The notes beneath the pieces were generated by a model. It was not told where the DNA came from and did no database searches. It worked only from the letters and a program-made list of their open reading frames with translations. A stretch of DNA of 64,000 nt from an uncultured delta proteobacterium. GTDB taxonomy: Bacteria > Myxococcota_A > Polyangia > Polyangiales > Houyiibacteriaceae. The DNA lies in assembly GCA_963699755.1 (NCBI GenBank), contig CAVOVB010000011.1, forward strand, positions 29,788-93,787, in the 5' to 3' direction. Shown one piece after another: positions 42,301 to 57,182 of this stretch (positions within the stretch are counted from its first letter, which is position 1; the number at the start of each line of letters is the position of its first letter). Both the position numbers and the translations under genes were made by a program.

Positions 42301-42407
42301 GTGAGACAAGCCTCGACGCATCGAGTCCGGCGGTCGTATTTGGAGGCCAGCTCGACTGGTTGGGGAACGATCTCTCGCCGGAGACTTGGAGCTTCGGTGT
42401 GCCGTAG
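39330..42407 (+). CDS. secreted modular protein: beta-helix with choice-of-anchor-Q-like end, Cys-rich repeats, Kelch propeller
   Basis: Hydrophobic N-terminus; GGAI/GGGI..N repeats; LGPLQDNGGPT..H..DQRG..CDAGAVE; DGNECT.D.CDPATGDC repeats; about six R..HAMA..G..LFGG..DTW blades. Confidence 0.85.
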   Translation: MRDSRSFFAVRGCAWTPGRVLRGLVGVFAFALLSGITTCHTSDCPAVDVHGNPLGVPCIQCSVPVTVPCMGSVWYLPEGATCLDEQRPALEDGTACGSGVGVCMAGVCEVDGFPCTEQGIRDAIAAGGGPHTFACVGPTTVATQSEISINNDVILDGRGLLTVDGQDDHRVFKVLHSGITAELRDMTITRGGGDADYGAGIYNAGALTLTDVVVTDCTGTAHGGALYQHGPSMNLTRVTLTGNSAYAGGAIGGGQGPTTITDSVLSSNTATSLGGAIYVGGITTMSGTTLSDNETLFGGAIIVIHQGELAVYDSAISGNRAQSGGGIYTHGTVTIDNSVVSDNEVTHGGGGIRQDEGMVAISNSTISGNTAQFGAGIEAATVSPNTSLLTTLNTTVSGNAAVSTGGGVVAFGTSTLALVHSTVFGNTAGNEGSAGYGTDTVTVTYKNNIIEGTCAAGSTTGTVISYGYNIESPGNTCFLTHPTDVTGVTLGNLGLGPLQDNGGPTLTHAPESSQSIAVDLVPAAACTDHGGAALVLDQRGSIRPDNLDCDAGAVEGYCENCDDGNVCATGACDPITRTCSYEQLPDWTPCPSGTGQCVGGVCYLCAGVICPPDGNECTDDVCDPATGDCSVPVPDGTACELNNHLGQCVDGVCELCADAWCPPDSNECTADLCDPATGDCVYPPAPDGTLCDSGNGECVAGECDLCPGLVCEPGNPECPCGWTYKGVSYWYAGRWGHAMAYAGPGECVMFAGHSGGNLQDIWWYNVESNSWSPGSPSTVPPHRYSHDMAYTGGDKVLMFGGTNTQGPTYGDTWIFDLLAGDWSEQALSPSPSARHGHQMVYLGDDKVLLFGGRSGTTNHADTWVYDLSDGVWTLKSPAMSPPARYQHAMARIGGDKALLFGGFGWGDTWAYDLSDDAWTPVSPAVSPITRYAHAMAWIGDDQVMLFGGYGPGAGQFGSPLDDTWIYDLSNNSWTEQIGSPDPDARLDHASCETSLDASSPAVVFGGQLDWLGNDLSPETWSFGVP

Positions 42408-42598: not shown

Positions 42599-43516
42599 AT
42601 GACGCGACCCCGCATCGTCGATCCAGGCACGACCTTGGCTGTGTCGCGCCGCACCACCCGTCGCCACTTCCTGCTCAATCCGGATGAGCGTGGACAGATG
42701 GAGCAGATCTATTGGTACTGCCTCGCGCACGCCGCGAAGCTGCATGGGGTCGTGGTTCATGCAGCCTGCCTCATGTCGACCCACGCCCACGAGGTCATCA
42801 CGGACGTGCGGGGCGTCTATCCGAGGTTCTTGGAGACCTTTCACCGCAACCTCGCCCTGTGCACCAAGGCGTTTCGGGGCTGGCCCGAAGAGGTATTCAA
42901 CAAGCGAAGTAGCGGCATCCATGCGTTGCGGACCCCGGATGCCATCGTGGACTCGATCGCCTACCTCATCACCAATCCGGTGGCTGCCGGGGCGGTGCGC
43001 TACGCCAAGGACTGGCCTGGGACGCAGACGCTGCCCCGCCATGTCGGGGCCCGCGTCATCCGGGTGAAGCGGCCCAGGTACTACTTCGACCCCGACAACG
43101 GCGTGTGGCCCGACGAGCTCGAGCTTCGGCTCGAGATGCCGGTGGCGCTGCAGCTCGAGTACGGCGCCGGGCTTGCCCAAGAGCGCATCGCCCAGCGGGT
43201 GCGTGACAAGCAACACCAGGCCTGGAACGAGGCGAGGCGCACCGGTCGCACCTTTCTCGGCTCGCAGCGTGTACTCCGGCTCCCACACACCAAGCGGGCC
43301 AAAAGCTACGAAGTGTTTGGGAGCCTCAACCCACAGTTTGCGGCCGCGGGAAATCGAGCGGTTGCGACCGAAGCGGTGAAGCGTCTTCGCGCCTTCAAGG
43401 CGCAATACCAACGGGCCCTTGCGAAGTGGATGGCCGGAGACCGAAACGCGTGCTTCCCGGCCGGCACCTGGTGGATGCGCGTGTGCCATGGGGCCCGGTG
43501 CGGGCCGGCACCTTAG
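42599..43516 (+). CDS. HUH Y1 transposase (RAYT/IS200-like)
   Basis: CLMSTHAH (HUH) and YLITNPVAAG (catalytic Tyr + NP), then DWPG. Confidence 0.85.
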   Translation: MTRPRIVDPGTTLAVSRRTTRRHFLLNPDERGQMEQIYWYCLAHAAKLHGVVVHAACLMSTHAHEVITDVRGVYPRFLETFHRNLALCTKAFRGWPEEVFNKRSSGIHALRTPDAIVDSIAYLITNPVAAGAVRYAKDWPGTQTLPRHVGARVIRVKRPRYYFDPDNGVWPDELELRLEMPVALQLEYGAGLAQERIAQRVRDKQHQAWNEARRTGRTFLGSQRVLRLPHTKRAKSYEVFGSLNPQFAAAGNRAVATEAVKRLRAFKAQYQRALAKWMAGDRNACFPAGTWWMRVCHGARCGPAP

Positions 43517-43674
43517 GCAGCAGCTGACGCGGCGTTGTTCGCGGCTGCCTTGGAGGGCGGCGGCACTTAGGTGCATGCAGAGCATGCCGCTGGGGGCACC
43601 GCGCGAGTCTTCGGCGCGCCAGGCCGCTCGTCTTCGCTCGCCCGACAGACATCCACGGCGTTCGAGCCGGTGTC

Positions 43675-43823
43675 AGCGGCTCGTGGGGGTGTCCGCGGGG
43701 CGCCCGCGACTGGGTTCACACGGCGCCAACCTCGGCAGGATCTCGTTGTTAGCGGCTCGTGGGGGTGTCCGCGGGGCGCCCGCGACTGGGTTCACACGGC
43801 GCCAACCTCGGCAGGATCTCGTT
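43675..43823 (+). repeat. 76-bp tandem repeat, two identical copies (second 73 bp)
   Basis: AGCGGCTCGTGGGGGTGTCCGCGGGGCGCCCGCG...GGATCTCGTT at 43675 and 43751. Confidence 0.95.
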
Positions 43824-43837
43824 ATCTTGTTTCGTTG

Positions 43838-43880
43838 TAGGCACGGGCGGTTTCGAACCGCCGACCCCTACCGTGTCAAG
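43838..43880 (-). mobile_element. 3' fragment of tRNA-Val(GAC): att site of an integrative element
   Basis: Minus strand CTTGACACGGTAGGGGTCGGCGGTTCGAAACCGCCCGTGCCTA: anticodon loop, T arm and acceptor strand, no 5' half. Confidence 0.85.
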
Positions 43881-44216
43881 AATGCGGTCGGCTCGCAAGG
43901 GCCGCTTTCGCTTATCCAAGACGAGGGTGGCATCGGGCCAAACCAGGCCAATCTGGCCACCGCCGAGCACCTTTCTACACCCGGGGTGTACCTCGAGAAT
44001 CTGGCCAACCACGTCCTCAAGCACCCTGACGACGTAGACGCCGTCGTCGCGCTCGCAACGTGGGCGCTCGACGTCGCGGAAGGGGAGGACTGGTGAAGCC
44101 CTCATTTGCTGCACGCGTGTTGCGAGTCGTGACTGTATCTTCTTCAGTCCGGAGACAGCTCCGGCTGGTTGACCTGGTCCTTTCGGCGGAGGATCGGTCT
44201 GAAGCGGATCGTCGCC

Positions 44217-44290
44217 ATGATGTACTCGCTCGTCGAGACCGCGAAGATCAACCGCGTCGACCCCCGAACTCTACCTCAAGCTCGCCGCGC
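44217..44290 (+). pseudogene. IS66 TnpC C-terminal remnant
   Basis: [15 protein letters not shown], frameshift, YLKLAA. Confidence 0.6.
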
Positions 44291-44484
44291 TCGACTTTGC
44301 GCACACGGCGGATGCGCAGGGCCACGCCGCCGGCATCATTCACCGCGACGTGTCGCCCTCAAACGTGCTCCTCAGCAATCCCGGCGAGATTAGGCTCGCC
44401 GACTTCGGCATCGCCAAGGCCACCAACCTCCCTGGCAGCATCCAGAACGGCGCACTGAAAGGAAAGGTGCCCTATATAAACTGA
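44284..44484 (+). pseudogene. internal Ser/Thr kinase fragment (subdomains VI-VIII)
   Basis: AALDFAH...[13 protein letters not shown]...LADFGIAK...LKGKVPYIN*. Confidence 0.85.
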
Positions 44485-44609
44485 GCGATCAGAATCATTG
44501 AGAAAGCCCCTCAAAATGCGGGGGAACCTGTTTCCGGGTGTTGCGTGCCGTTTCTGGTTGTCTCGCGGCTCGTGGGAGAAACTGTGGGAGTTGGGTTCGG
44601 CGTGTTGAG
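44470..44609 (+). repeat. dispersed element end, copy A
   Basis: CCCTATATAAACTGA...ATCATTGAGAAA...GGGGAACCTGTTTCCGGGTGTTGCGTG...GTGGGAGAAACTGTGGGAG. Confidence 0.92.
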
Positions 44610-44699
44610 GGGGCCACAAAACGCTATCGAACGACGCCACCGGTGCGCGGTGTGCAAGTCGCGCGCGTCGGGCCCCTTTGGCAGCTCGCTGGTCAGTAC

Positions 44700-44969
44700 C
44701 GACACTGTCGGGGCACCCCAGAGCGTCCGGGAATGCCTGGGCGGTTCACTCGGTGGGATCGTGACATCAGCAATGGTTGCCACATCAGTCTTCATGCGCG
44801 AACCACGGACCAAGTTCGCGATTTCTACGCGACGGCTACCGCGCTCGGTTCACCGGGCGACGGCGAGCCCGGACTTCGCCCTGAATACTCCAACCGATAC
44901 TACGCCGCCTTCATCCGCGACCCGAACGTCAAACGGACCGAGGTCGTGACTTTGGTCGAGTCAATTCGA
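44700..44969 (+). pseudogene. VOC/glyoxalase family remnant
   Basis: GCHISLHA...VRDFYATA...DGEPGLRPEY..YYAAFIRDP; no intact start. Confidence 0.7.
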
Positions 44970-45893
44970 CTAGATCGCGCAGGTCACCTCGAACGTGCGG
45001 AGGCTGAAGTCGCATTGGATGGTCTGAATGCCTGTGCGGAAGGCCACGGGCACGATCTTGTCCGGGCCGCTCGTCCAATAGAAGGCTTCACCCGCATCGG
45101 CTCCCCAAATCACAGAGCCCTCTATCGTAGCCGTGGCGTCACCCTCCGTGTAGGCCGTCCTGAAGTCGAGCTGCAGCGAATACATCTCGTCGGGACGCAG
45201 GCGCCACATCATGGTAAACGCCGTGACCTCGAGGCTGCAGCCTTCGTCGTGGATGACGCGAGGGTTTCGATCGACGATCGTGTAACGAGTGGCATCGCTC
45301 ATTGCGATTTTGTTGGCGCTCATCGTGCCGAGGGCGATTTCATCGGTAGACAGCGCTCTCTTGGCGGACCACTCGAAGACGCAGACGTCGCCCGAGAACA
45401 TGCCCCCTTCGCAGTCCGGTGGTCGTACAACCCCGGACATGAATTCCAGCACGCCGTCGGAGCCTGCATCGACCTCGGCACTGAGCTCGCCCCCGGCGTC
45501 CCAGTCGATCGAGTGGAGCGGTGGTAGCTCGTACGCGGGGTTGTCGGCTTCCTTAAGCAAGTGGATCAGCGCGTTGAGATAGGTGTTGAAGTCGGTCAAC
45601 ACGTCCCCGGCACAGGCAATCTGATCCTCGAGCGGCAGCTGGACCGAAGACGGGACGCAGACCGGTCCTTCCGATCCGGCTTGGCACACCATCTCGGCTC
45701 CACATTCCTCCAGGAGCCTGAGCTCTCCCTCCTCACAGATCAGAATCGATGCGAGATCGCTGGAACAGACCTCAAGCCCTTCGATGTCGCACGAACTCGC
45801 TTCCGTCGCCGCGTCTCCACATCCCGTCCCCGTTGCGAGCGCAACGACCACGAGCAACCAAGAGCGCATGCTGCGCAAACCAAAGCTAGACAT
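44970..45893 (-). CDS. Cys-rich lipoprotein, unknown function
   Basis: GGAGG RBS, signal peptide ending TGTGC, multiple Cys. Confidence 0.75.
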   Translation of the reverse strand: MSSFGLRSMRSWLLVVVALATGTGCGDAATEASSCDIEGLEVCSSDLASILICEEGELRLLEECGAEMVCQAGSEGPVCVPSSVQLPLEDQIACAGDVLTDFNTYLNALIHLLKEADNPAYELPPLHSIDWDAGGELSAEVDAGSDGVLEFMSGVVRPPDCEGGMFSGDVCVFEWSAKRALSTDEIALGTMSANKIAMSDATRYTIVDRNPRVIHDEGCSLEVTAFTMMWRLRPDEMYSLQLDFRTAYTEGDATATIEGSVIWGADAGEAFYWTSGPDKIVPVAFRTGIQTIQCDFSLRTFEVTCAI

Positions 45894-45916
45894 TGGCACC
45901 TCCGACAGACTGCACA

Positions 45917-45932
45917 AGCACGCGGCGTGCCA
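45917..45932 (-). promoter_or_regulatory. sigma54 -24/-12 promoter
   Basis: Minus strand TGGCACGCCGCGTGCT (GG-N10-GC) just before the lipoprotein RBS. Confidence 0.65.
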
Positions 45933-46059
45933 AGACCCAACCCGCGGTTTTCATTGGCTATTGCAGATCCGCGACGCGCACGGATCGCGCGTGCGCGAAA
46001 TACATGCACGTCGGGCAACAAGAGCCGCAGTGGAGGCCAGCCATGGACCATATGTTTTC

Positions 46060-46246
46060 CCCTACGTAAACTGACTGTTCACAATCATTGAGAAATCCCC
46101 GCAAAACAAGGGGGAACCTGTTTCCGGGTGTTGCGTGCCGTTTCTAGTTGTTTCGTGGTGTGTGGGAGAAATTGTGGGAGTGGTGCTCGGCACGTTGAGC
46201 CTGCGTCACGATGCGGCCTAACCTGTTTCCACCGGTCCGAAATTCC
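46060..46246 (+). repeat. dispersed element end, copy B
   Basis: CCCTACGTAAACTGA...TGTGGGAGAAATTGTGGGAG...TTTCCACCGGTCCGAAATTCC. Confidence 0.92.
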
Positions 46247-46259
46247 GAGGTCAGGTCAG

Positions 46260-46455
46260 GTCAGGTCGCCTTCGATCAGGGCGAAAGCACGACCCACGCG
46301 GGCAGCGCGCCGCGGTTCGTGATGCTCTCGCCTTCGCAGAGCAGCGGATCCCCGTCACGCGCGGCCTCGTCGAGGATGAGGTCGTCCCGTGAACTGACCC
46401 CGCGCGCCTGGTACGTAGCGAACAAGGCGTCGGTCATGACGTCGAAGAAGGATCT
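46260..46455 (-). pseudogene. C-terminal fragment of an unknown gene
   Basis: FFDVMTDALFATYQARG...LPAWVVLSP* with typical codon usage and no start. Confidence 0.4.
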
Positions 46456-46522
46456 GTTAGCCCATCAGGCTCAAGAGAAGCGCCGATGTCAAAACCAGAC
46501 GTTGGTGTCCGGTAGTTCTGCT

Positions 46523-47770
46523 GGCGGTCTCAAGCCATCGACGCAACAGCCATGACGGTGTGATAGCCAAAATCGCACCAAGGAGGCTGAGCGATGAAGC
46601 GTCGAGAAGTGAAACGAGGCATTCGTCTAACGGGAGCGGAGCACGAAGAAGTACTCTGTCGTCTTGGGGCCGGCGAATCGTACGAAAGAGCGGCCGCGGC
46701 CATTGGATGTTCAACAAAGTCGATACAGAGACTGCTCGCTCGAGGTCGCAAGGCTAAACGCCGTCGCAGGCCTCGACCTCGCTCCCCGCATCGGCTGTCG
46801 TGTGCCGAGCGGGAGGAGATCTCTCGACGATTGGTTGCCGGAGACTCGTTTCGGCAGATAGCGAGCCACCTTGGTCGTGCGCCGTCGACCATATCGAGAG
46901 AGGTCGCTGGGAATGGAAGCCGCACGACGTATCGTGCCTGGTCTGCGGAGCAAAGCGCCGCACGTCGAAATCTTCGTCCCAGGGCGGGCAAGCTCACAGC
47001 CCATCCAAGGCTCCGAAAAGAGGTGGAAAGGCGACTCGAACAACGCTGGTCGCCGCAGCAGATAGTCGCACGGCTCGTCCTGGACTATCCCGAGGACCTC
47101 AGCATGCGCATCTCTCACGAAACGATCTATCAATCCCTGTTTATCCAAGCCAGAGGCGCGTTACGCAAGGAACTCACCACGTGCTTACGAACGGGCCGTG
47201 CTCGACGGCGTCCTCATCGACGAACCGAGCGGCAAGGTCAATTGCCCGACATGGTGATGATCAGCGACCGTCCGCCCGAAGCCGAGGACCGTGCCGTCCC
47301 AGGCCATTGGGAAGGCGATTTGATCATTGGCAAAGGCGGAAAGTCTGCCATCGCGACGCTGGTCGAACGGACAAGTCGTTATCTCCTGCTCGTGCGCCTA
47401 CCCGATGGGCGTCGTGCCGAGCAGGTGCGTTGCGCCCTCACACGTGAGGTGATTCAGCTGCCCCCGCAACTACGAAAAACCCTCACGTGGGATCAAGGCA
47501 AAGAGATGGCCGGGCATGCGCAATTCACGGTGGCCACAAACGTCAGCGTCTTCTTATGCGACCCGCATGCGCCATGGCAGCGAGGGAGCAACGAAAACAC
47601 AAACGGTTTGCTACGACAGTATTTTCCAAAATCCACTGATCTGAGTCGACACACTCAGACCGAGTTGAACGCTGTCGCAAGGGAGCTCAATGCGCGGCCT
47701 CGACAAACCCTTCAATGGATGAAACCGTGCGAGATATTCAACGCTGTTGCGTCCACCGCTTGAGACCGCC
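46523..47770 (+). mobile_element. IS30-family insertion sequence
   Basis: Terminal IRs GGCGGTCTCAAGC..TCGACGCAACAGC / GCTGTTGCGTCCA..GCTTGAGACCGCC around the transposase. Confidence 0.93.
46594..47763 (+). CDS. IS30 transposase
   Basis: PSTISRE, WSPQQI, HWEGDLI, TWDQGKEM, PWQRGSNENTNGLLRQYFPK. Confidence 0.96.
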   Translation: MKRREVKRGIRLTGAEHEEVLCRLGAGESYERAAAAIGCSTKSIQRLLARGRKAKRRRRPRPRSPHRLSCAEREEISRRLVAGDSFRQIASHLGRAPSTISREVAGNGSRTTYRAWSAEQSAARRNLRPRAGKLTAHPRLRKEVERRLEQRWSPQQIVARLVLDYPEDLSMRISHETIYQSLFIQARGALRKELTTCLRTGRARRRPHRRTERQGQLPDMVMISDRPPEAEDRAVPGHWEGDLIIGKGGKSAIATLVERTSRYLLLVRLPDGRRAEQVRCALTREVIQLPPQLRKTLTWDQGKEMAGHAQFTVATNVSVFLCDPHAPWQRGSNENTNGLLRQYFPKSTDLSRHTQTELNAVARELNARPRQTLQWMKPCEIFNAVASTA

Positions 47771-48049
47771 GGGAGAAACCGGACACTATGGCTTGGGGCT
47801 TACAGCCGAATTTCGCGGTACTAGGTGTTATGTCGCCTGGGACGCGAACCGGAAAGGGCCTTTGTTTCGGCTATGCTCGAGGCAAACTGATGGGAGGACA
47901 ACCCTCCGAGGCGGCGAACATCTCGCTACGGACAACGTTCTGAGGAAGGACAAGGTTGCTCGTGAGATCCAGGGAACGGGATGGCGTTCCCCGGCTCAAG
48001 GTGTAGTATACTCCCATTCGTCATTCCTGACCTCAGGGGGAGGTAGTCC

Positions 48050-48787
48050 ATGGGCAGGGTACTCGCGTTCCTCTACGGCGTCGTCTCGTACGTGGTCTTC
48101 CTGGTCGTGTTCCTCTATGCCATTGGATTTGTCGGGAACTTCGTGGTGCCGAAATCGATCGACACCGGCGCGGAAGGCGCCTTCCTGCCGTCGCTCCTGA
48201 TCAACAGCCTCCTGCTGGGCGCCTTTGCCATCCAGCACACCATCATGGCCCGCCCCGGGTTCAAGCGGTGGTGGACCCAGATCGTTCCCGAGGCGATCGA
48301 GCGCAGCACCTTCGTCCTGGTGGCCAGCCTCCTCCTGGCGCTGCTCTACTGGAAGTGGCAGCCGCTGCCGAGTGTCGTCTGGGAGGTCCAGAACACGGCG
48401 GGGGTGTACGTGCTGTGGGGGCTGTTTGGACTGGGCTGGCTGATGGTGCTCCTGTCCACCTTCATGATCAATCACTTCGACCTGTTCGGGCTGCGGCAGG
48501 TCTACCTGAACCTCCGCCAGACCAAGTACTCCCACCTCCCCTTCACCACCGTGTGGCTCTACAAGCTGGTGCGCCACCCGATCATGCTCGGCTTCGTCAT
48601 CGCGTTCTGGGCCACGCCGTACATGACCGTCGGGCACCTCATCTTCGCAATTGGCACGACGGGCTACATCCTCATCGGGCTGCAGTTCGAGGAGAAGGAT
48701 CTCGTGACCTATCACGGCGAAGACTACGAGGAGTACAAGAAGCGGGTGCCGATGATCGTGCCGCTGGCGGGGGGATCGAAGCGCTGA
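48050..48787 (+). CDS. mddA: methanethiol S-methyltransferase
   Basis: [56 protein letters not shown]. Confidence 0.85.
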
Positions 48788-48838
48788 CCTAGTAGGTCAC
48801 TTGCAATATACGGCGGCGAGGCTGTGGTTCACTTCTGG

Positions 48839-49720
48839 ATGCGGCTACCTGGATTCCACGACGTCAACTCGCTCGACAATCGCGATCCGCAGGTGCTCGA
48901 GCGTTTTGCGGATATTGCGGGACCGATCCTGTGGAAGTGGTTTCGGCCTCGGGTCCGTGGTCTCGACACAATCCCGGACGGCGGTGCTCTTTACGTGTGC
49001 AACCACAGTGGTGGTTTCATGACACCCGACACATGGATCCTGGCAGTCGCCCTGATACGCGAGCGTGGGATTGACGACGTCCCGTATGCGCTTGCGCATC
49101 AGGTCGTGATGGAGGCTCCGCTCACGAACCAGATGCTGCCCGCCATGGGTGCGATCGCGGCCAACCCCGAGAATGCGCACCGCGTCTTTGCCGCCGGGCG
49201 CAAGGTGCTCGTCTATCCGGGCGGCGACCTCGATGCCTTTCGACCCTCACGCGACCGCGGTCGCGTCATCTTCGGTCCCCGCCGTGGGTATGTGCGACTC
49301 GCGTTGCGCGAGGGCGTGCCGATCGTCCCCGTCGTCTCGGCGGGTTCTCACGACGTCTGGTGGGTGGTGAGCGACGGGCGGTGGTTGTCGCGCTTGTTGC
49401 GCACACATCGGTTCCTGCGCACGGATGTCCTTCCGATCACCGTGTCGGTGCCGTGGGGACTCACCGTGGGGGCGCCGCCCTTCCTCCCTTTACCCGTGCC
49501 CGTCTTGATCGACGTCCTCGAGCCCATGTACTTCGAGCGCTCCGGACCTGAGGCTGCGGACGACCCAAGCTACGTGGAGCAATGCCATCGGCGCGTGCTC
49601 GGCGCCATGCAGCTCGCGCTGGACCAGCTGATGGAGGACCGGCGCCTCACCCGGCAGAAGCGGCTCCGAGCTGGGCTCCATCGTGCAACTCACCTCTTCT
49701 CACGGGCTCCTCGGAATTGA
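48839..49720 (+). CDS. lysophospholipid/DGAT-type acyltransferase
   Basis: NHSGG..PD, VLVYPGG, GVPIVPV. Confidence 0.88.
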   Translation: MRLPGFHDVNSLDNRDPQVLERFADIAGPILWKWFRPRVRGLDTIPDGGALYVCNHSGGFMTPDTWILAVALIRERGIDDVPYALAHQVVMEAPLTNQMLPAMGAIAANPENAHRVFAAGRKVLVYPGGDLDAFRPSRDRGRVIFGPRRGYVRLALREGVPIVPVVSAGSHDVWWVVSDGRWLSRLLRTHRFLRTDVLPITVSVPWGLTVGAPPFLPLPVPVLIDVLEPMYFERSGPEAADDPSYVEQCHRRVLGAMQLALDQLMEDRRLTRQKRLRAGLHRATHLFSRAPRN

Positions 49721-49748
49721 CGTCCCCTTCAAAGGAAACGAGAGATAG

Positions 49749-50228
49749 CTAGATGCCGCAGACACCCTCGGGGGCCTCGCAATCGATCACGATCTCCCAG
49801 CCGGGGACGTTCGTCACCTCGCGCTCGCAGTAGCATTGTTGGGGGTCAGACGGATCGTAGATGCAGCCGAACGCCGTGAAGCCATCAGTGCAGCCGTCTC
49901 CGCCCGCAAGACAGGTGACGAACTCAGGGGGCTGCTCCAGACACTCCTGTAGGCTCCCCTGCCAAAGCGGGGCTTCTAACGCGAGGCAACCGTCATGCAG
50001 ATTGCATTCCGATTCGCTTAAACCTTCACACGCCAAGCGGAGGGCTTCGCAATCCTCTATCCCGGAGCCGCCGCTGCCCCCAACCCCTGAGTCCATGTCC
50101 GGCGAGGTTTCACCGCACGCAACGCCAATCAGCATTCCGAAGCCAAGGCAAGACGTTGTCCAGCGTGTCACGAGCCTCCGTCGCGGATTGTACACGCGGG
50201 AGACCTTGGGGTTCGCGGGCTGACTCAT
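49749..50228 (-). CDS. Cys-rich lipoprotein
   Basis: Lipobox GVAC, Gly/Ser linker, many Cys. Confidence 0.7.
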   Translation of the reverse strand: MSQPANPKVSRVYNPRRRLVTRWTTSCLGFGMLIGVACGETSPDMDSGVGGSGGSGIEDCEALRLACEGLSESECNLHDGCLALEAPLWQGSLQECLEQPPEFVTCLAGGDGCTDGFTAFGCIYDPSDPQQCYCEREVTNVPGWEIVIDCEAPEGVCGI

Positions 50229-50414
50229 AGTTCTTCCACCATGCCGACGATGATCGATGCCTCCTCAGCACCTCGTCGCCCGCACAATCCTTGATGGTTC
50301 CGCGCTCGCGGTCCCGCTAGCGTGCCCCAATACGTCACTTACTGCACGCTCTGCTCGCGACCGCCAGATCGAAGCGCGGACCGTCGACTGCGGCTGTGGT
50401 ACCTTCAGCCGTTC

Positions 50415-50996
50415 ATGACGCCTTCGACCCCCGAACGCTTTGGCGACTACGAGCTCGTCGAACGACTCGGCGTTGGCGGCATGGCGGAGACGTTTCTGGC
50501 GATTCGGCGCGGGCCGGCGGGCTTCGAGCAGCGCGTTTGTCTCAAGCGAATACTGCCGACATTCGTGCACGACACGGAGTTCGTCGAGATGTTCCTGCGC
50601 GAGGCGCGCCTGTCGGCCCTGCTGCATCATGGACACATCGCGCGGGTGCTCGACTTCGGCATCGTCGGCGGCACGCACTACCTCACGCTCGAGCTGATCG
50701 AGGGGACCGACCTGCGGGCGACCTTGCGCCATCTTCGCTCACGCGGAGAGGCGCTCGACCCGGGGCTCACGTCGTACGTCGCACATGCCGTCGCCTCCGC
50801 CCTCGACTTCGCACATACGGCGGACGACGAGGGACACGCTGCGGGCATCATTCATCGCGATGTGTCTCCTTCCAACGTGCTCCTGAGCGAGGCCGGTGAG
50901 GTGAAGCTCTCCGACTTTGGGATCGCCAAGGCCACCAATCACCCCGGCAGCGTTCAGAGCGGCGCCCTCAAAGGAAAGATCCCCTACATAAACTGA
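50415..50996 (+). pseudogene. Ser/Thr protein kinase, 5' half truncated at subdomain VIII
   Basis: [31 protein letters not shown]; no SPE/APE or C-lobe. Confidence 0.9.
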
Positions 50997-51166
50997 CCGA
51001 CCAGGATCATTGAGAAATCCCCGCAAACAAAGGGGAACCTGTTTCCGGGTGTTGCGTGTCGTTTCTGGTTGTTTCGTGGCGTGTGGGAGAAATTGTGGGA
51101 GTGGTGTTCCGTGCGTTGACCCTTCGTGACGATGTCGCCTGTCAGATTTCCACTGGTCCGAAATCC
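50982..51166 (+). repeat. dispersed element end, copy C
   Basis: CCCTACATAAACTGA...TGTGGGAGAAATTGTGGGAG...TTTCCACTGGTCCGAAATCCC. Confidence 0.92.
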
Positions 51167-51180
51167 CTCAAGTGCTTTGG

Positions 51181-52419
51181 TCATCGGGTCGTCGTCATTG
51201 CGGGCTCGCCAAGGAAGCGCAAGATTTCGTGTTCAACAGTTTTGGGTTGCTCAATCTGCGGCACGTGTCCGCACTCAATGACGATGTTCTCCGCGGAGGG
51301 AAGCGCGTGGCGCACATGCTGCGCGAAGGCCACTGGGACGAGTCGGTCGTTCTTGCCCCAAATGAAAAGGCTCGGTGCGTCCAGACCTGCAAGTCTAGTC
51401 CAGAATCCATTCGTGCCGTCCGGCTCTTCAAGATAGATGTTCCGAACGGCCGAGTAGAACGCCAACCGTCCACCTCGGGTCCTGTGCATTCGCAAGAACT
51501 CATCGACACCCGCCTGTGCCCACCCGCTCCTGGCGCCGGGAATCATCAGTCTCATCGCAGCTCCTACGGCGTCGTTCGGCACGAGTTGGAGCAGCCCGAG
51601 CTCGGGGCGAAGGAGCCGAACAAGAGGAATCCATCCGCGTTTTTGCCGCCAAGCAAGCGAGGGAGACAAGAGCACGAGGCGGTCAACTCGGTCTGGGTGG
51701 CGAAGTCCGAGTTCGATGGCAACTCGGCCCCCGAGGCTGTTGCCCACGATCGACGCGCGCTCGATGCCGAGTGCGTCCATGAGCTCGACTACAGCCCCAC
51801 AGAAGAATGGTGGATCGTAGCGCGCACAGAGCGGCTTGTCCGAATCTCCGAAGCCCGGCAGATCAACAGCGACGACCTCGAATTGGCCAGCGAGCGCCGC
51901 GACCGTCGGGAGGAAAGAGATCTTGGTTGCCCCGAGCCCATGAATCATCAGTACCGGTTCACCGGCGCCCGCCCGCACTACCGACAGCGTTCCGGAAGGT
52001 GTCGACACCCGTTCAAATCGAACGCGTCTGGTGTCGTGAAAACCGCTGGTCGCCGCCAGAATTGCAACGCCCAAGTGAAGATTGTCCCGAACGATGAGGC
52101 GACCAGCCCGGTAAGCGGCCAAACCGCCTCGTGCATTCTGTGCAATCGACAACCACGTGGCCCGATCGGCGATGAGTCGCGCATCGCAAACGCTGCCCCG
52201 GATGGCTCGACGGATCTGAAGTTCCGTGCCGTGAATGGCAATATCCCACTCTCCTTCGTTGACTACGACTGCCCGAATTCGCGCGTTCTGCTCGGAACCA
52301 TCGAGAACCGATGTGTCAAAGCGAGTCGCAAGCGAACCAAGGATCTCTTCCATGGATTCAGTCAACCCCGACTCAGAGGCTTGGGTGGCACCGCCTGTCT
52401 TCGTTTTTTCCTCCGTCAC
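51181..52419 (-). CDS. alpha/beta hydrolase with N-terminal SCP2-like domain
   Basis: HGLG, DLPGFG, GNSLGG, WGKND, CGHVPQIE; N-terminus ends in AGRLIVRDN. Confidence 0.85.
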   Translation of the reverse strand: MTEEKTKTGGATQASESGLTESMEEILGSLATRFDTSVLDGSEQNARIRAVVVNEGEWDIAIHGTELQIRRAIRGSVCDARLIADRATWLSIAQNARGGLAAYRAGRLIVRDNLHLGVAILAATSGFHDTRRVRFERVSTPSGTLSVVRAGAGEPVLMIHGLGATKISFLPTVAALAGQFEVVAVDLPGFGDSDKPLCARYDPPFFCGAVVELMDALGIERASIVGNSLGGRVAIELGLRHPDRVDRLVLLSPSLAWRQKRGWIPLVRLLRPELGLLQLVPNDAVGAAMRLMIPGARSGWAQAGVDEFLRMHRTRGGRLAFYSAVRNIYLEEPDGTNGFWTRLAGLDAPSLFIWGKNDRLVPVAFAQHVRHALPSAENIVIECGHVPQIEQPKTVEHEILRFLGEPAMTTTR

Positions 52420-52639
52420 AGCTGCCCCACTTTCGGATGTCCGAGCGCACTACTTGGTGGCAAAGAAAGCACTAGAATCTTGCGAATGACCGTCACGAAC
52501 TGCCCTGCTGCATCCGCAGACATTTCCATGATCCGTGTTCGCAACTGCGACACGCCGGTAATCAAAGATGAAATCGCCGAGCTAACTCGGGAAAGCCGAG
52601 TGTGCCAGACACGGAGCCATGCCGCAGCCCCCCGAAGCC

Positions 52640-52801
52640 GTCGCAGCCATGACCAACAGGGCGGCACACGCATCGTCTGGACCTACACCTTCGTGTCTGA
52701 CCTCCGCCCTCGCCTATCTGCTCGCCATTCCAATCGTCTGGCTCTTCAGAGAACGGTTGCAACAGGGCCTCGACGCCATCCGCGCGGAGCTTCTGGCTTA
52801 G
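52640..52801 (+). pseudogene. frameshifted SRPBCC-like C-terminal fragment
   Basis: GGTRIVWTYTF then frame change to LAYLLAIPIVWLFRERLQQGLDAIRAEL*. Confidence 0.45.
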
Positions 52802-52855
52802 GTCGGTCTTCATTCGCTGCCGATGCTCCCGAAAGAGAGCTCGGAGACGGCGCGC

Positions 52856-53386
52856 TCAAATCGAGTCGGTGATAACGCTTTCCGGGCGTGGAGCCGCCTC
52901 ACTGCGAAGCCGTGCGACCTGGGCCTCGATGCCCGCTAGACCCTTCTCGAACATCCCGGTGAGGCGCCATCGCAACAGGGGGACCAGTGGCCGGAGGTAT
53001 GGGGCGACGTCAGCTCCCATGAGGTAGGTCACCCTGGTCTGGTCGTTACCAATCGCTTCGAGCCGGGCCTGCTCGACGACGGAGATGATGCCGGGCAGGT
53101 TGGCGTCTAGAACCGTGAACGCCCATCGATGCGGGGGGTCCCAGGCAATGAATCGTTCGTTGACCTTGAACAAGTCGACGTGAATCCAGCGGGTAGCGCC
53201 GACCCCCTGTGCCCGGTCGGAGGTGGTACGGCACTCCTTCGCCGCCGCAAACCAGTCGGGCCAGCGTTCGTTGTCGACGAGCACCGCCCATACCTCTTCC
53301 GGGGTGCCGTTCACGGTCGCGATCGTCGTGATCCGGGTCGAGGCTGCGTCGATGAAGTCGGTATCACGTGGAGTAAGTGTGAACAT
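52856..53386 (-). CDS. SRPBCC (polyketide cyclase-like) protein
   Basis: PEEVWAVL...WPDWF, GVGATR, ERFIAWDP. Confidence 0.85.
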   Translation of the reverse strand: MFTLTPRDTDFIDAASTRITTIATVNGTPEEVWAVLVDNERWPDWFAAAKECRTTSDRAQGVGATRWIHVDLFKVNERFIAWDPPHRWAFTVLDANLPGIISVVEQARLEAIGNDQTRVTYLMGADVAPYLRPLVPLLRWRLTGMFEKGLAGIEAQVARLRSEAAPRPESVITDSI

Positions 53387-54342: not shown

Positions 54343-54369
54343 CTTCGCACTGCGGCTCGCGGTCGAGAA
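54314..54369. repeat. 23-bp inverted repeat (1 mismatch, 10-nt loop)
   Basis: TTCTCGACCGCGAGCCGCGGTGC / GCACTGCGGCTCGCGGTCGAGAA. Confidence 0.9.
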
Positions 54370-54544
54370 GCTCGAGGCGCTGCGTCCGAAGGCGCTCATA
54401 TCGAGAGAGCGTCCGCTTGGACTGGTCGCACTCGATCCCGAACGGGCCCCATCCTTGGTCTTCTGCGTACTGCATGACCAAGGACGCCACCAAGGACTTC
54501 CCGACGCCGCCCTTGTTCCCGACGATGCAATGAAATTCCTTCAT
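54355..54544 (-). pseudogene. traL: TraL-like P-loop protein, N-terminal fragment
   Basis: HCIVGNKGGVGKSLVASLVMQY...IECDQ..TLSRY; directly after traK. Confidence 0.7.
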
Positions 54545-54548
54545 CTTT

Positions 54549-55004
54549 TCAAATCTCCTCAGACGGAATGAATTCGCGCGGCCGCGAGACCGGCGGCGGA
54601 TAGACCTTCGAAGGGCGCGCCGAATTCGCGATCGCTGCAGCCTTGGGCTTCTGGCCACTGGAGGGTTCGGGCGGGGACGGGGCTCTCGGAACCTGAATTC
54701 CGTTGGTCGCAACGAGTCTTGGGTGCGGCGCGAACAGACCCCCGCCTGCATGGTTGTGATCGCGGCTTGGATTTTCAGGCTCCACCGCACCGGAACGTGG
54801 AAGATTGTGTGTCCGACAATACCGGAGAAACGAGCGATAACAGCCCGGAAAAGCACCCTTTTGCTTCCATTCGATCCAGACGCTCCGCATCGAGCACCCT
54901 GCATTGAGCCAGGCGTTGATTTCATGGAGATGGAGGCGAAACGCCCCGTAGGGCTCGAGCCTCGGCGAGAACTTCGCATGCAAGATCTGGTTCGGTACGT
55001 TCAT
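54549..55004 (-). CDS. traK: TraK-like relaxosome protein
   Basis: AFRLHLHEINAWLNAGCSMRSVW...YRSFLRY plus Pro-rich tail; divergent from traJ across oriT. Confidence 0.7.
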   Translation of the reverse strand: MNVPNQILHAKFSPRLEPYGAFRLHLHEINAWLNAGCSMRSVWIEWKQKGAFPGCYRSFLRYCRTHNLPRSGAVEPENPSRDHNHAGGGLFAPHPRLVATNGIQVPRAPSPPEPSSGQKPKAAAIANSARPSKVYPPPVSRPREFIPSEEI

Positions 55005-55096
55005 CGTGCCTACCCCTGTTATCGGTTTTGCCCCTCCAAATGTTGTCCTGGCTCGTGATCTTTTTTCCGTCGTGCTCGCCGCAGGCGATTGGTCAG

Positions 55097-55146
55097 CGTG
55101 TGACTCTGAGTGCACTCCGTGTGACTTTGAGTGCACTCCGTGTGAC
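55097..55146 (+). repeat. 21-bp direct repeats (about 2.4 copies)
   Basis: CGTGTGACTCTGAGTGCACTC / CGTGTGACTTTGAGTGCACTC / CGTGTGAC. Confidence 0.9.
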
Positions 55147-55164
55147 AGCATGGGACCCAACTTG

Positions 55165-55205
55165 TTGGGGCAAGGGATAGTTTTGTCTGCCAACAAAACT
55201 GCACG
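55165..55205. promoter_or_regulatory. putative IncP-like oriT (nic region and inverted repeat)
   Basis: Minus strand TATCCCTTGC resembles RP4 nic TATCCTGC; adjacent IR AGTTTTGT-N6-ACAAAACT; between traK and traJ. Confidence 0.65.
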
Positions 55206-55320
55206 CGCTACCTTCTCCCGCTAGTCGCGTGCTCGGTTGCGCGAGTTGCGCGCTCAACGCCTTCGGCTTATTCGCGCGCTCAGAACAGACTTCCCTCTAG
55301 ACAACGCGATCGCGATGCCT

Positions 55321-55659
55321 ATGCTCGTACATGTGGGGGAACTGAAGCATCGACTCACCGTGCGGCTTGGAGACGCGCACGTCGCTCAACTCAACGCGCT
55401 CGCAGAAACGAGCGGGCTCAGCCGCAACGATGTGGTTCGTCGCATCCTCTTGAGCCACGACTTACCGACTGCAGAGTCGCTCGAGGAAATCGAGAAGCTC
55501 CAAAGGCTTCAGGGCGAACAGAATCGGCTCGGCGGCCTACTCAAGAAGACGCTGACTGAGCGTCGCAAAAAAGCGGACATTCGACGAACGCTTGCTGAGA
55601 TTGAGAAAACGAGCGCGCACATTCGCGCCGTGATCGATCGCTTGGCCCGGCCGCGATGA
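55321..55659 (+). CDS. TraJ/MobC-like relaxosome accessory protein (start uncertain)
   Basis: RHH (LTVRL...GLSRNDVVRR) and NRLGGLLK; ATGA overlap with relaxase. Confidence 0.75.
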   Translation: MLVHVGELKHRLTVRLGDAHVAQLNALAETSGLSRNDVVRRILLSHDLPTAESLEEIEKLQRLQGEQNRLGGLLKKTLTERRKKADIRRTLAEIEKTSAHIRAVIDRLARPR

Positions 55660-57182
55660 TCATCAAGCCGAAGAAGTGGAACAAGGGGGGCAGGATGTCT
55701 CCGAAGCGCTCGCGTTTTCGCGCGTTAGTGACCTATATGCTCAGGGGTAAAGGCACCGAGCGGTGCACATGGTACTGGGCAGGAAACCTCGAGGGGATCG
55801 ATCGGCAAGAGGATGCGGACGTCGCGATCCATGTGGTGGAGGCGTTTCAGCGCGCGAACACCCGCGTCAAAGGTGACCGGACCTACCACTTGATCATCTC
55901 GCTTCACCCCGGTGACCGTTCGCTCAACGAACGGGAGCTCGAGGTAGTGGTTCGGCGTGCCGTCAACGCGGCCGGACTCGGCGAACATCAGTACATTGCG
56001 GTCCGGCACAGCGACCAGGAGCACGAGCACGTTCACGTTGCGGTCAATCAGATTCATCCGAAGACGCGGAAGATCCACCACCCTTGGCGGGACGTCGAGG
56101 CGTTCAAAGCGTTGGCGAGCGAGCTCGAGGTCGAACTAGGCCTTCACAAGGTCGATCGAAGCGTGAGGCGAGTCGATAGCGATCGGTCCCGCGACTACGA
56201 GTCGGCGCGAGGGGTACAGAGCTTTTCTCGCTGGGCGAGGAGTCGCATCGGCGAGAAGATCGACTTGGAAGGCGCCGCCAACTGGAATGACCTTCACGCG
56301 CGACTGGCGGTGCATGGGGTGCGAGTCGTCAAGCGCGGAAATGGTTTGGCTGTGGTCGACGCAACGCGAGGGGACCTCGCCTGCAAGGCCTCGGCGCTTG
56401 GGCGCCACTGGTCCAAACAAAGGCTCTGTGAGCGCTTCGGAGATTTCGTTGCAGGTCCTACGCCGGACCAAGTGACGACCAAGAGCCGAGAGGCGTATCG
56501 ACCCGAGCCCCTGGGGGCGCTACGTGAGGACGGACTCTGGAGGGAGTACCAGGATGCGCTCAGCGCCTCGCGGACTCGGCGGGACGAACGGCGCGAGGCC
56601 CTGTCATCCAAGCTCGACTCAGCCCGAGTTGCGCATCGACGGCATTTCAAGCTGAGGCATCACGCGATTGCGGCGATGCCGATTCCTGGGCGCGAGAAAC
56701 ACAAATTGTACAAGATGCTTTCGTTCGAGAAAAAGGCTGCCGAGCGCAGACTGAGGACGACGATCAAGGGATGGCGGACCCTCGGCGTCAACACGCACCC
56801 GGGGTCTTGGAAGGAGTTCTTGGCAGCCCGCGCCGGACACGGAGATCAGCGGGCGATCCGACGACTCGCCCGCAAGTCCGGGGGATTGGTGATCAAGAGT
56901 GGCGAGAAGCAGGTTCGCGCCCTCCCGTCTCGCAGCGGGCGCACGAGTCGGGGGAGCATCGTCCACAACCTGCCGAACGGGGTTAGGCTTCGAGAGTGGG
57001 CCGGATCGATCGAGCTCCTCGGCGAGGCCCGCGAGAGTGCGCTCGAGCAACTGGTGAGCGTCGCCAAGCAGAGGTTCGGAACGAAGGAAGTCACGCTCCT
57101 GGGATCGAGGCGCGCACAAGAGCGACTGGCGAAACTGGCTGCCGAGCGAGGGCTGGAAATTGCCGAAGAGCGCCAGCGCTGA
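55656..57182 (+). CDS. traI: MOBP (TraI-like) relaxase
   Basis: ALVTY, YHLIISL, HQYIAVRHSDQEHEHVHVAVNQIHP, KASALGR. Confidence 0.9.
   Translation: MIIKPKKWNKGGRMSPKRSRFRALVTYMLRGKGTERCTWYWAGNLEGIDRQEDADVAIHVVEAFQRANTRVKGDRTYHLIISLHPGDRSLNERELEVVVRRAVNAAGLGEHQYIAVRHSDQEHEHVHVAVNQIHPKTRKIHHPWRDVEAFKALASELEVELGLHKVDRSVRRVDSDRSRDYESARGVQSFSRWARSRIGEKIDLEGAANWNDLHARLAVHGVRVVKRGNGLAVVDATRGDLACKASALGRHWSKQRLCERFGDFVAGPTPDQVTTKSREAYRPEPLGALREDGLWREYQDALSASRTRRDERREALSSKLDSARVAHRRHFKLRHHAIAAMPIPGREKHKLYKMLSFEKKAAERRLRTTIKGWRTLGVNTHPGSWKEFLAARAGHGDQRAIRRLARKSGGLVIKSGEKQVRALPSRSGRTSRGSIVHNLPNGVRLREWAGSIELLGEARESALEQLVSVAKQRFGTKEVTLLGSRRAQERLAKLAAERGLEIAEERQR

Follow-up and report, generated by a model that had tools for sequence, protein, structure and literature searches.

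A probable tyrosine-integrase element family that splits one conserved Ser/Thr kinase gene in a Polyangiales genus, with internal left ends that likely restore it upon excision

Three repeats in a 64,000-nt stretch of an uncultured Polyangiales genome (GCA_963699755.1, contig CAVOVB010000011.1, positions 29,788 to 93,787; hereafter the window) are very probably attL-type left ends of a family of tyrosine-integrase elements. The target of the family is one conserved Ser/Thr kinase of 333 aa, not kinases in general, plus one instance of a paralogue, and the element cuts the kinase gene within the activation segment, at the codons for GK(I/V)PY and the following M. So far the family is found in one Polyangiales genus only. 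Our reading of the whole, which we consider probable, is that these are left ends of elements that split this one kinase and that internal ends preceded by the full front half of the gene likely restore it upon excision. In what follows, C11 is the contig of the window, G000 is its source genome (5.35 Mb), and G, L, and X numbers designate other genomes, loci, and metagenomic runs.

Left ends in the window

The three direct copies, here called units A, B, and C, start at cores at 44470, 46060, and 50982 that read CCCTA(T/C)(A/G)TAAACTGA. The initial annotation had recognized them as copies of one unit, and BLASTN agrees, with 84–86% pairwise identity. About 130–140 bp are common to all three units and ~190 bp to B and C. 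Paired repeats lie ~100 bp downstream of each core: at 44571 and 44583 in unit A (core plus arm, 44470..44608), at 46161 and 46173 in unit B (46060..46246), and at 51082 and 51094 in unit C (50982..51167), all on the + strand. The paired end repeats described earlier are exact as TGTGGGAG-N4-TGTGGGAG in B and C, but the first repeat of A is CGTGGGAG. A profile of the three window copies recovered seven unit copies in G000 with E values of 1e-29 to 1e-69, the next match having an E value of 0.07, and the repeats are therefore not due to chance. Three of the seven are on C11, three on C4, and one on C3. Their left flanks are a kinase 5′ half ending GK(I/V)PY in 4/7 and unrelated sequence that keeps part of the core in 3/7. 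The paired TGTGGGAG motif occupies six places in G000, namely five unit copies and the right end on C10 described below. Across 55 units the repeats are paired in 47, and they occur on both arms in the kinase-type family and in a PP2C-type sister family.

Units A and C follow kinase pieces that end LKGK(V/I)PY-IN*, where PYMAPEY is the expected continuation. The piece before C (50415..50996, + strand) is a complete 5′ half of 193 aa that ends GKIPY-IN* and covers positions 1–155 of 263 in Pfam Pkinase. Both fusions were reported initially and both exist, but the piece before A is only ~194 bp long (44285..44477, + strand; ~64 codons, HRD and DFG to GKVPY) and is cut on its left by an IS66-type insertion sequence (IS) remnant. 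The observation that the two pieces have diverged and are still cut alike also holds, with 21 synonymous and 11 non-synonymous differences over 62 common codons. Unit B is a putative attL that has lost its kinase half or marks a secondary site. Its flank is unrelated to the kinase, as claimed, but the GGAGG-N6-ATG read there is not a gene of its own: it derives from the start of an IS110 transposase gene, of which 35 bp remain with ribosome-binding site and first codons (46018..46052, + strand; 97–100% identical to IS110 gene starts on C7 and C1). Pfam DEDD_Tnp_IS110 matches the C7 gene whose start corresponds to this flank. The identity with IS110 also ruled out a short gene or an attP arm at this position. 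Left flanks resembling that of unit B are present in G026 and L119.

Right end and integrase

A six-frame search of G000 for the expected kinase continuation returned 39 kinase-like motif matches, one of which was a 3′ half without a 5′ half (C10:4033, YMAPEYALG). The order on C10 is an Xis-like open reading frame (ORF), a tyrosine integrase, TGTGGGAG repeats inside the last codons of the integrase, the core TCCCCTACAT, and the kinase 3′ half. The Xis-like ORF matched HTH_17 in a scan of its first 65 residues. The core CCCTACAT is found at left ends and at C10, where it precedes YMAPEY, in agreement with the proposal that activation-segment codons are the insertion site. The partner end and intact integrase that the initial annotation had suggested looking for were thus found: G023 repeats the C10 layout with an intact integrase of 391 aa (PF00589 and PF14659), in which R202, K236, H308, R311, H333, and Y342 are invariant in three aligned homologues. 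At the integrase end of G000 and G023, only 10 non-kinase codons precede YMAPE. G023 also carries a relaxase and a ParA-like gene 5–6 kb before the integrase. Metagenomic contigs from X3 and X15 bridge integrase, core, and kinase 3′ half, and the alignment of one X6 contig ends at the core end, with 46 letters of the contig lying beyond. G000 has seven left ends and one right end. Joining each of three 5′ halves to the C10 3′ half by script gave 333 codons with no stop.

Scans of the genome contigs for the integrase, by single protein and by alignment, returned only G023, three PP2C-type loci, and distant matches. The single serine recombinase of G000 (C3:777-1121) has no matching end and was rejected as the enzyme in favor of the C10 tyrosine integrase. 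By analogy with the lambda arrangement of core, overlap, and arm-type sites, as laid out in PMC1807965, the TGTGGGAG repeats may be arm-type sites and the 7-bp overlap TCCCCTA may be the segment exchanged.

The target kinase and its distribution

The kinase 5′ half was present in 45/55 genomes of the genus. The halves were joined at the core in 39 (three of which look frameshifted elsewhere), an integrase end sat at the core in two (G000 and G023), the G036 kinase was interrupted elsewhere by another element, and three genomes were unresolved. Inactivation of the kinase, one of the outcomes raised by the initial annotation, is seen in two genomes. Its view of kinases in general as targets has to be narrowed to one orthologous kinase and one paralogue (L131/L143, one instance seen). 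The element does cut the kinase in G000 and G023, as was supposed, but the window pieces are passengers in a tRNA-Val island and not the kinase locus.

In the native gene order, a class-V aminotransferase gene is followed by the kinase and then by a coiled-coil gene on the opposite strand. In G000 each of these two flanking genes is present once, the aminotransferase gene on C4 and the coiled-coil gene on C10, and the native locus therefore extends from C4 to C10 with a gap. The window was ruled out as the native kinase locus on the same grounds, the single aminotransferase neighbor being on C4 and the 3′ half on C10. The unit was found in 12/36 same-genus genomes and in 0/24 genomes of other families. 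An exact 23-letter unit pattern had 15 matches in the whole genome collection, where the titles naming a taxon of lower rank than class were Polyangiales or Polyangiaceae, and no matches in the viral collection.

At L076:5561-7396, L206, L210, L211, and L216, a LexA-like gene, the aminotransferase, and the kinase follow one another on a single strand in the native order, and co-transcription of the target kinase with an SOS regulator is therefore possible; the gene two before the kinase is LexA-like, judging by its sequence. The G036 kinase (L219, G036:C7:262970-276370) is interrupted at another site by a 13.4-kb element with a 12-bp direct repeat in the YLTL codons. That element carries an unrelated 444-aa tyrosine integrase, a family-A DNA polymerase, a beta-clamp-like gene, and GCTGCTAC repeats on both arms. 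Given this element and that of G000 and G023, the kinase is the target of two unrelated integrases. None of the nine other loci with homologues of the G036 integrase was beside a kinase (within 1.5 kb).

Independent insertions

Near-identical elements are joined to divergent kinase halves. G000 and G023 are 99% identical in the integrase, 77% in the kinase 3′ half, and 81% in the next gene. The unit in L143 is fused to the paralogous kinase (SRKQSAVKGKIPY) and that in L160 to the orthologue, and the two loci match at 99.7% identity from the core onward, with unrelated sequence on its other side. Element C of the window matches the C3 copy at 97% over 2,447 bp, cargo included, with identity beginning at the core. 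The C3 flank exists in another copy elsewhere, which likewise diverges from that point. These three pairs exclude a single old duplication, including the one between A and C that had been named initially as the alternative.

The pattern search of metagenomes gave 72 matches, reduced to 61 distinct junctions that are not independent events. A script assigned 34 to the kinase, 6 to PP2C, 19 to other flanks, and 2 as short, and inspection by eye added three kinase and two PP2C flanks. The final left flanks were a kinase half in 37/61, a PP2C phosphatase 3′ end in 8, and other sequence in 16, a tabulation that the initial annotation had called for. In the metagenomic locus L128 the unit is fused to the apparent reverse strand of a tRNA fragment, which is possibly a secondary site in a tRNA gene. 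In L081 (G020:C1:247700-253800) it is fused to an IS fragment, far from the intact native kinase and beside Hsp70-like genes, another case of modules moved from the kinase locus.

Spare 5′ halves and rejoined kinases

Upstream DNA was readable for 32 joined kinases, 16 of which follow the aminotransferase (native) and 16 foreign DNA (island). Junctions of a 5′ half with a unit lie in the foreign DNA before the joined kinase in G004, G019, G005, and G026, and G012 has a spare kinase 5′ fragment. The order in G004 is 5′ half, unit, one gene, IS end, 5′ half, and 3′ half, with 2.3 kb between the two cores and no integrase. A carbohydrate-binding-module gene precedes both the displaced half of G004 and the joined kinase of G019, and G004 differs from G019 by a single additional 2.3-kb module that lies between two cores. 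The end of a molybdenum/tungsten module is a joined kinase in G005 but a junction of 5′ half and unit in G000. Of the 29 metagenomic kinase-junction rows, counting duplicates, that had 600 bp or more of upstream sequence, 14 contained a full open 5′ half.

Displaced halves retain a conserved motif 10 nt before the ATG. In the window this is TGTGGTACCTT at 50395..50405 (+ strand), ~10 nt before the kinase ATG and promoter-like in appearance, and a variant of it precedes nearly all orthologous kinase copies, native or displaced; a simple scan of 50200-51300 found no sigma-70 two-hexamer site and no terminator. On the left, the halves are bounded variously by the truncated left end of an IS, by the final 13 codons of the aminotransferase gene, or by other DNA, which indicates that the kinase half was captured more than once. 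One such boundary is the truncated left end of an rve-type insertion sequence at 50258..50387 (+ strand), which abuts the kinase upstream motif and is likely the scar of one capture. Ten related copies occur in G000, two of which continue into a transposase remnant, one with a Pfam rve_3 match (E 1e-12). A conserved 140-bp segment before many kinase halves was considered as a right arm and ruled out, as it is this IS left end.

A proposed repair cycle and its alternatives

We lean modestly towards a repair cycle that would link the occupied, displaced, and rejoined states. An element with integrase, Xis-like gene, and relaxase would integrate into an intact kinase and split the gene, the state of G000 and G023. 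Integration, by attP and kinase, would always take place beside the 3′ half, and the resident 5′ half would be pushed upstream as an internal attL. The one attR could pair with any attL for excision. With an inner attL, excision would remove the element, leave the cargo, and fuse that internal 5′ half to the host 3′ half; with an outer attL, it would take cargo along with kinase halves to the next host. Modules would also be reshuffled by homologous recombination within the 580-bp half and the 130-bp unit. The parts of this cycle that we observe are the junction anatomy on both sides, the intact G023 integrase, independent insertions across species, and modules ending in a rejoined kinase (G004, G019, G005, and G026). 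The cycle accounts for the many left ends and one right end, for kinases that are split only with an integrase, and for modules that recur in different order.

The cycle predicts chimeric kinases. Synonymous-site identity was 0.405 in the 5′ half and 0.401 in the 3′ half for 21 native pairs, and 0.536 and 0.447 for 45 island pairs, a native versus island contrast with a label permutation p of 0.024 (17 in-frame genes). The proline codon of the core was CCC in 13/16 island-context and 4/16 native kinases (Fisher p 0.004, with kin that are not independent). Swapping of kinase halves, as the initial annotation had entertained, is moderately supported, among orthologues.

Several results weigh against the overall reading. 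The relatives compared are not independent samples. The amino-acid chimera test was not significant (p 0.105), the 5′-half tree was mostly unresolved (25/38 inner branches open), and the rank correlation with the neighboring gene differed little between native (0.82) and island (0.77) kinases. The intact half of G019 was 87.7% identical to the intact half and 88.2% to the displaced half of G004, which does not discriminate. No element had both ends on one contig, G000 and G023 each being gapped inside the element. An attP junction was seen in 0/61 distinct metagenomic junctions, and the sole match to an arm-core attP pattern in the genome collection was the G023 attR. The G000 integrase has one extra base, a frameshift, relative to the G023 copy; since contigs of X1, X3, and X6 (two studies) lack that base, this is an assembly error or a private mutation. 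Lastly, C4a and C4c are 96–100% identical over nt 100–400 of the kinase half, and several cargo swaps switch inside the unit and not at the core, so homologous recombination or conversion also acts.

How far it acts is the subject of an alternative that we judge unlikely, in which the integrase made the junctions but RecA-type recombination through the 580-bp half and 130-bp unit accounted for most of the insertion and shuffling of modules, with the kinase restored as a by-product, much as for a specialised-transducing derivative bearing the attL flank. The near-identity of C4a and C4c inside the kinase half speaks for it, as does cargo that is 99–100% identical behind units whose first 50 bp differ (L167, G062, L125; L229, L239, L241), and a single crossover in the half would yield the identical final structure. 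However, breakpoints fall exactly at the core in L143/L160 and in element C of C11 versus C3, the CCC core is enriched in rejoined island kinases whereas a crossover inside the half would retain the host codon, and the kinase halves are mostly only 75–90% alike.

It is very improbable that the element is a regulated genetic switch, with host-signalled excision turning the kinase on as in developmentally excised elements. Excision would restore the 333-codon frame, the integrase is preceded by an Xis-like gene, both occupied and empty forms are found within the same run (X15, X6), and the kinase is two genes behind what we take to be a LexA-like gene. Against this, the integrase is at the site in only 2/45 kinase genomes and moved recently between species, unlike a domesticated element, mixed metagenome forms can be different strains, and the G000 integrase copy is frameshifted. 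The excisable, regulated interruption proposed in the initial annotation found no direct support. We give still less credence, indeed hardly any, to the unit being a non-autonomous repeat, a structured RNA, or an integron-like cassette site unrelated to the C10 integrase, with kinase fusions from one old event. Several copies do follow non-kinase flanks, and copies stand in arrays with cargo between them, but an Rfam scan found no family matching the unit (the window yields only three tRNAs), the RNA folding of unit C is like that of its shuffles (z 0.26), the integrase end carries matching repeats and core, and insertions into divergent kinases were independent.

Returning to the repair cycle, a tentative extension that we hold to be rather unlikely is that the kinase gene is a self-repairing cassette dock. 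Visits would switch the kinase off, exits through internal ends would switch on a chimeric kinase with foreign N-lobe and activation segment and deposit cargo, and, with a sibling integrase docking at the Ser/Thr phosphatase, mobile DNA would have colonised both arms of phospho-signalling and diversified them.

Sister integrases

The sibling integrase is 67% identical in amino acid sequence, has the same repeats as the kinase type, and was found in G011 (twice), G012, and G004. It sits at the 3′ end of a PP2C phosphatase gene with the PP2C 3′-end core on both sides, and the gene is not disrupted because its last codons are duplicated. PP2C-type loci are L073, L074, L075, and L177, with units in L015, L016, L031, and L037. 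The PP2C-type Xis-like gene is 91% identical in nucleotides to that of the kinase type, the arm repeats are alike, and the PP2C site of G000 (C3:781700) is empty.

The 30 integrase loci retrieved from a search of 301 genomes of the order comprised two of the kinase type, three of the PP2C type, and 25 others. Among these 25, 21 were beside tRNA-Gly and two more beside a partial tRNA-Gly. The tRNA-Gly integrases are the closest protein relatives (38–53% identity), and in a quick tree, midpoint-rooted only, a single long branch holds both the kinase and the PP2C enzymes. The likely history, as judged from these sequence relationships, is a switch of integrase target from tRNA-Gly to kinase and PP2C genes.

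Genomic context of the window

The island that holds the three copies ends at the 3′ 44 bp of a tRNA-Val(GAC) (43837..43880, − strand), 100% identical to positions 30–73 of the full tRNA-Val on C6, which adjoins its own tyrosine integrase. The IS66 transposase C-terminal remnant that cuts kinase piece A on the left lies at 44169..44279 (+ strand; Pfam DDE_Tnp_IS66_C, E 7e-4, under the curated cut-off). The same order of tRNA, IS66, kinase, and unit occurs in G005:C10, at 89% identity over 756 bp in the unit A region. Further along the window, 54351..57182 contains a mobilization backbone with Pfam matches, composed of a ParA-like gene (−), NikA/MobC (+), and a MOBP-type relaxase (+), which matches the element inserted in the G023 kinase at 83% over 2,847 bp. 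G023 sequence continues from the C11 end into the C6 end, which suggests that C11 and C6 are linked. The shared backbone and this continuity make it likely that a kinase-type element with stacked modules joined a tRNA-Val integration module. The window copies were likely shifted from the kinase locus to the tRNA-Val island by exchange in the shared backbone, and are likely stranded there.

Between units A and B the cargo is a lipoprotein-like ORF of 315 aa without a Pfam match (44970..45917, − strand). Unit B is followed by an insertion sequence at 46516..47777 (+ strand; HTH_38 and rve, 389 aa, terminal inverted repeats, with 99.6–99.9% copies on C7), which is IS30-like by its domain layout, and by cargo at 48050..50228 comprising an NnrU-family membrane protein (+), an acyltransferase (+), and a lipoprotein-like ORF (−). 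The cargo of element C is an alpha/beta hydrolase and a polyketide-cyclase-like gene (51181..53386, − strand); its hydrolase region recurs at 98% identity after units in G062 and on three metagenomic contigs.

Outside the tRNA-Val remnant, 42599-43516 encodes a 305-aa transposase-like ORF without a Pfam match, with 69–79% copies on five other contigs; next to it, 43668-43819 holds a 76-bp repeat twice in tandem. In C4 of G000 and in G005 the aminotransferase is followed by a related gene, and the ORF resembles REP-associated tyrosine transposases. Just inside the thrS neighborhood, 39537-42407 encodes a 956-aa protein with repeat regions and a C-terminal Kelch propeller, which is probably older island cargo. 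In the G000 bin, C7 repeats 311 kb of C1 at 82% identity (a second organism), and C9 overlaps the ends of C3 and C4 at 99%. Bin contamination was ruled out as a cause, as the duplicated contig is C7 and the genome has only one copy each of thrS, the aminotransferase gene, and the coiled-coil gene; there may be a strain mix within the islands of the bin.

Significance and comparison with known systems

The findings describe a route by which cargo could accumulate at a mid-gene site without loss of the gene, and a route by which different species could exchange parts of a signalling enzyme, half for half. With 67% identity, shared arms, different cores, and tRNA-Gly relatives, the kinase and PP2C integrases are a ready pair for asking how tyrosine integrases change target. 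A literature survey that did not extend to the TIGER target tables, which may list kinase-inserted islands, turned up neither an integrase reported to use activation-segment codons of a Hanks-type kinase nor passengers reported to bear a half-gene as a repair piece. A term search found no mention of kinases in PMC12884075 and PMC13626063. Insertion into coding genes is itself common, at 43.4% of islands (PMC12424338).

The likeness to lambda att sites lies in a short core at a fixed crossover, paired direct repeats ~100–130 bp away on both sides, and an integrase with an Xis-like gene at one end. In contrast to lambda, the target here is in the middle of a kinase gene, phage genes were not observed, and the viral collection does not contain the unit. 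Arm binding is predicted from the repeats. In specialised-transducing derivatives such as lambda-dgal, host DNA flanking attL travels along, as it does in the modules, which could likewise re-enter by homology. They differ in that no phage is involved, several separate captures are bounded on the left by IS ends or aminotransferase remnants, and the captured flank would repair the target. The skin and heterocyst elements are developmentally excised, most such elements being of the serine-recombinase type or long-resident. Here, too, an integrase element interrupts a signalling or regulatory gene whose frame is restorable (333 codons), but it resides in only 2/45 genomes, with the integrase 99% identical where host genes are 77–81%, unlike regulated gene integrity.

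Compared with tRNA-Gly tyrosine integrases of the same order, the kinase/PP2C branch sits at protein-coding genes and uses different repeats. Unlike in an integron cassette array with attC sites and IntI, unit C folds as RNA like its shuffles and the integrase groups with tRNA-Gly integrases.

Two systems come closer. Accretion of integrative and mobilizable elements (IMEs), integrative and conjugative elements (ICEs), as well as cis-mobilizable elements (CIMEs), as in ICESt1/ICESt3, resembles our system in that the integrative element bears a relaxase, decayed modules that lack an integrase are stacked, att sites occur internally, and cargo may be picked up by outer-site excision. The relaxase of the G023 element and the relaxase and MobC of the window would be compatible with an IME, and the elements are broken by contig gaps. 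In the ICESt type a newcomer enters attR, and tyrosine-integrase IMEs usually leave the target undisrupted, according to PMC5704250. By contrast, our internal junctions join a host-type kinase half to just the left arm, and the gene is split by the autonomous element. A CIME-type internal junction with the integrase-side arm was found in 0/7 junctions of G000 and 0/61 metagenomic ones. In dusA-specific IMEs and in SXT at prfC, an element in the 5′ part of the gene supplies promoter and N-terminus and the gene is still expressed; the DusA replacement is short (35 residues compared) and part of attP (both from PMC8409611). Here, a captured orthologous half of 193 codons rides on passenger modules and is lacking at the integrase end; it would have an effect only once excision from an internal site had taken place. 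The system works like IME-CIME accretion and like dusA/prfC restoration, yet departs from each in a defining feature.

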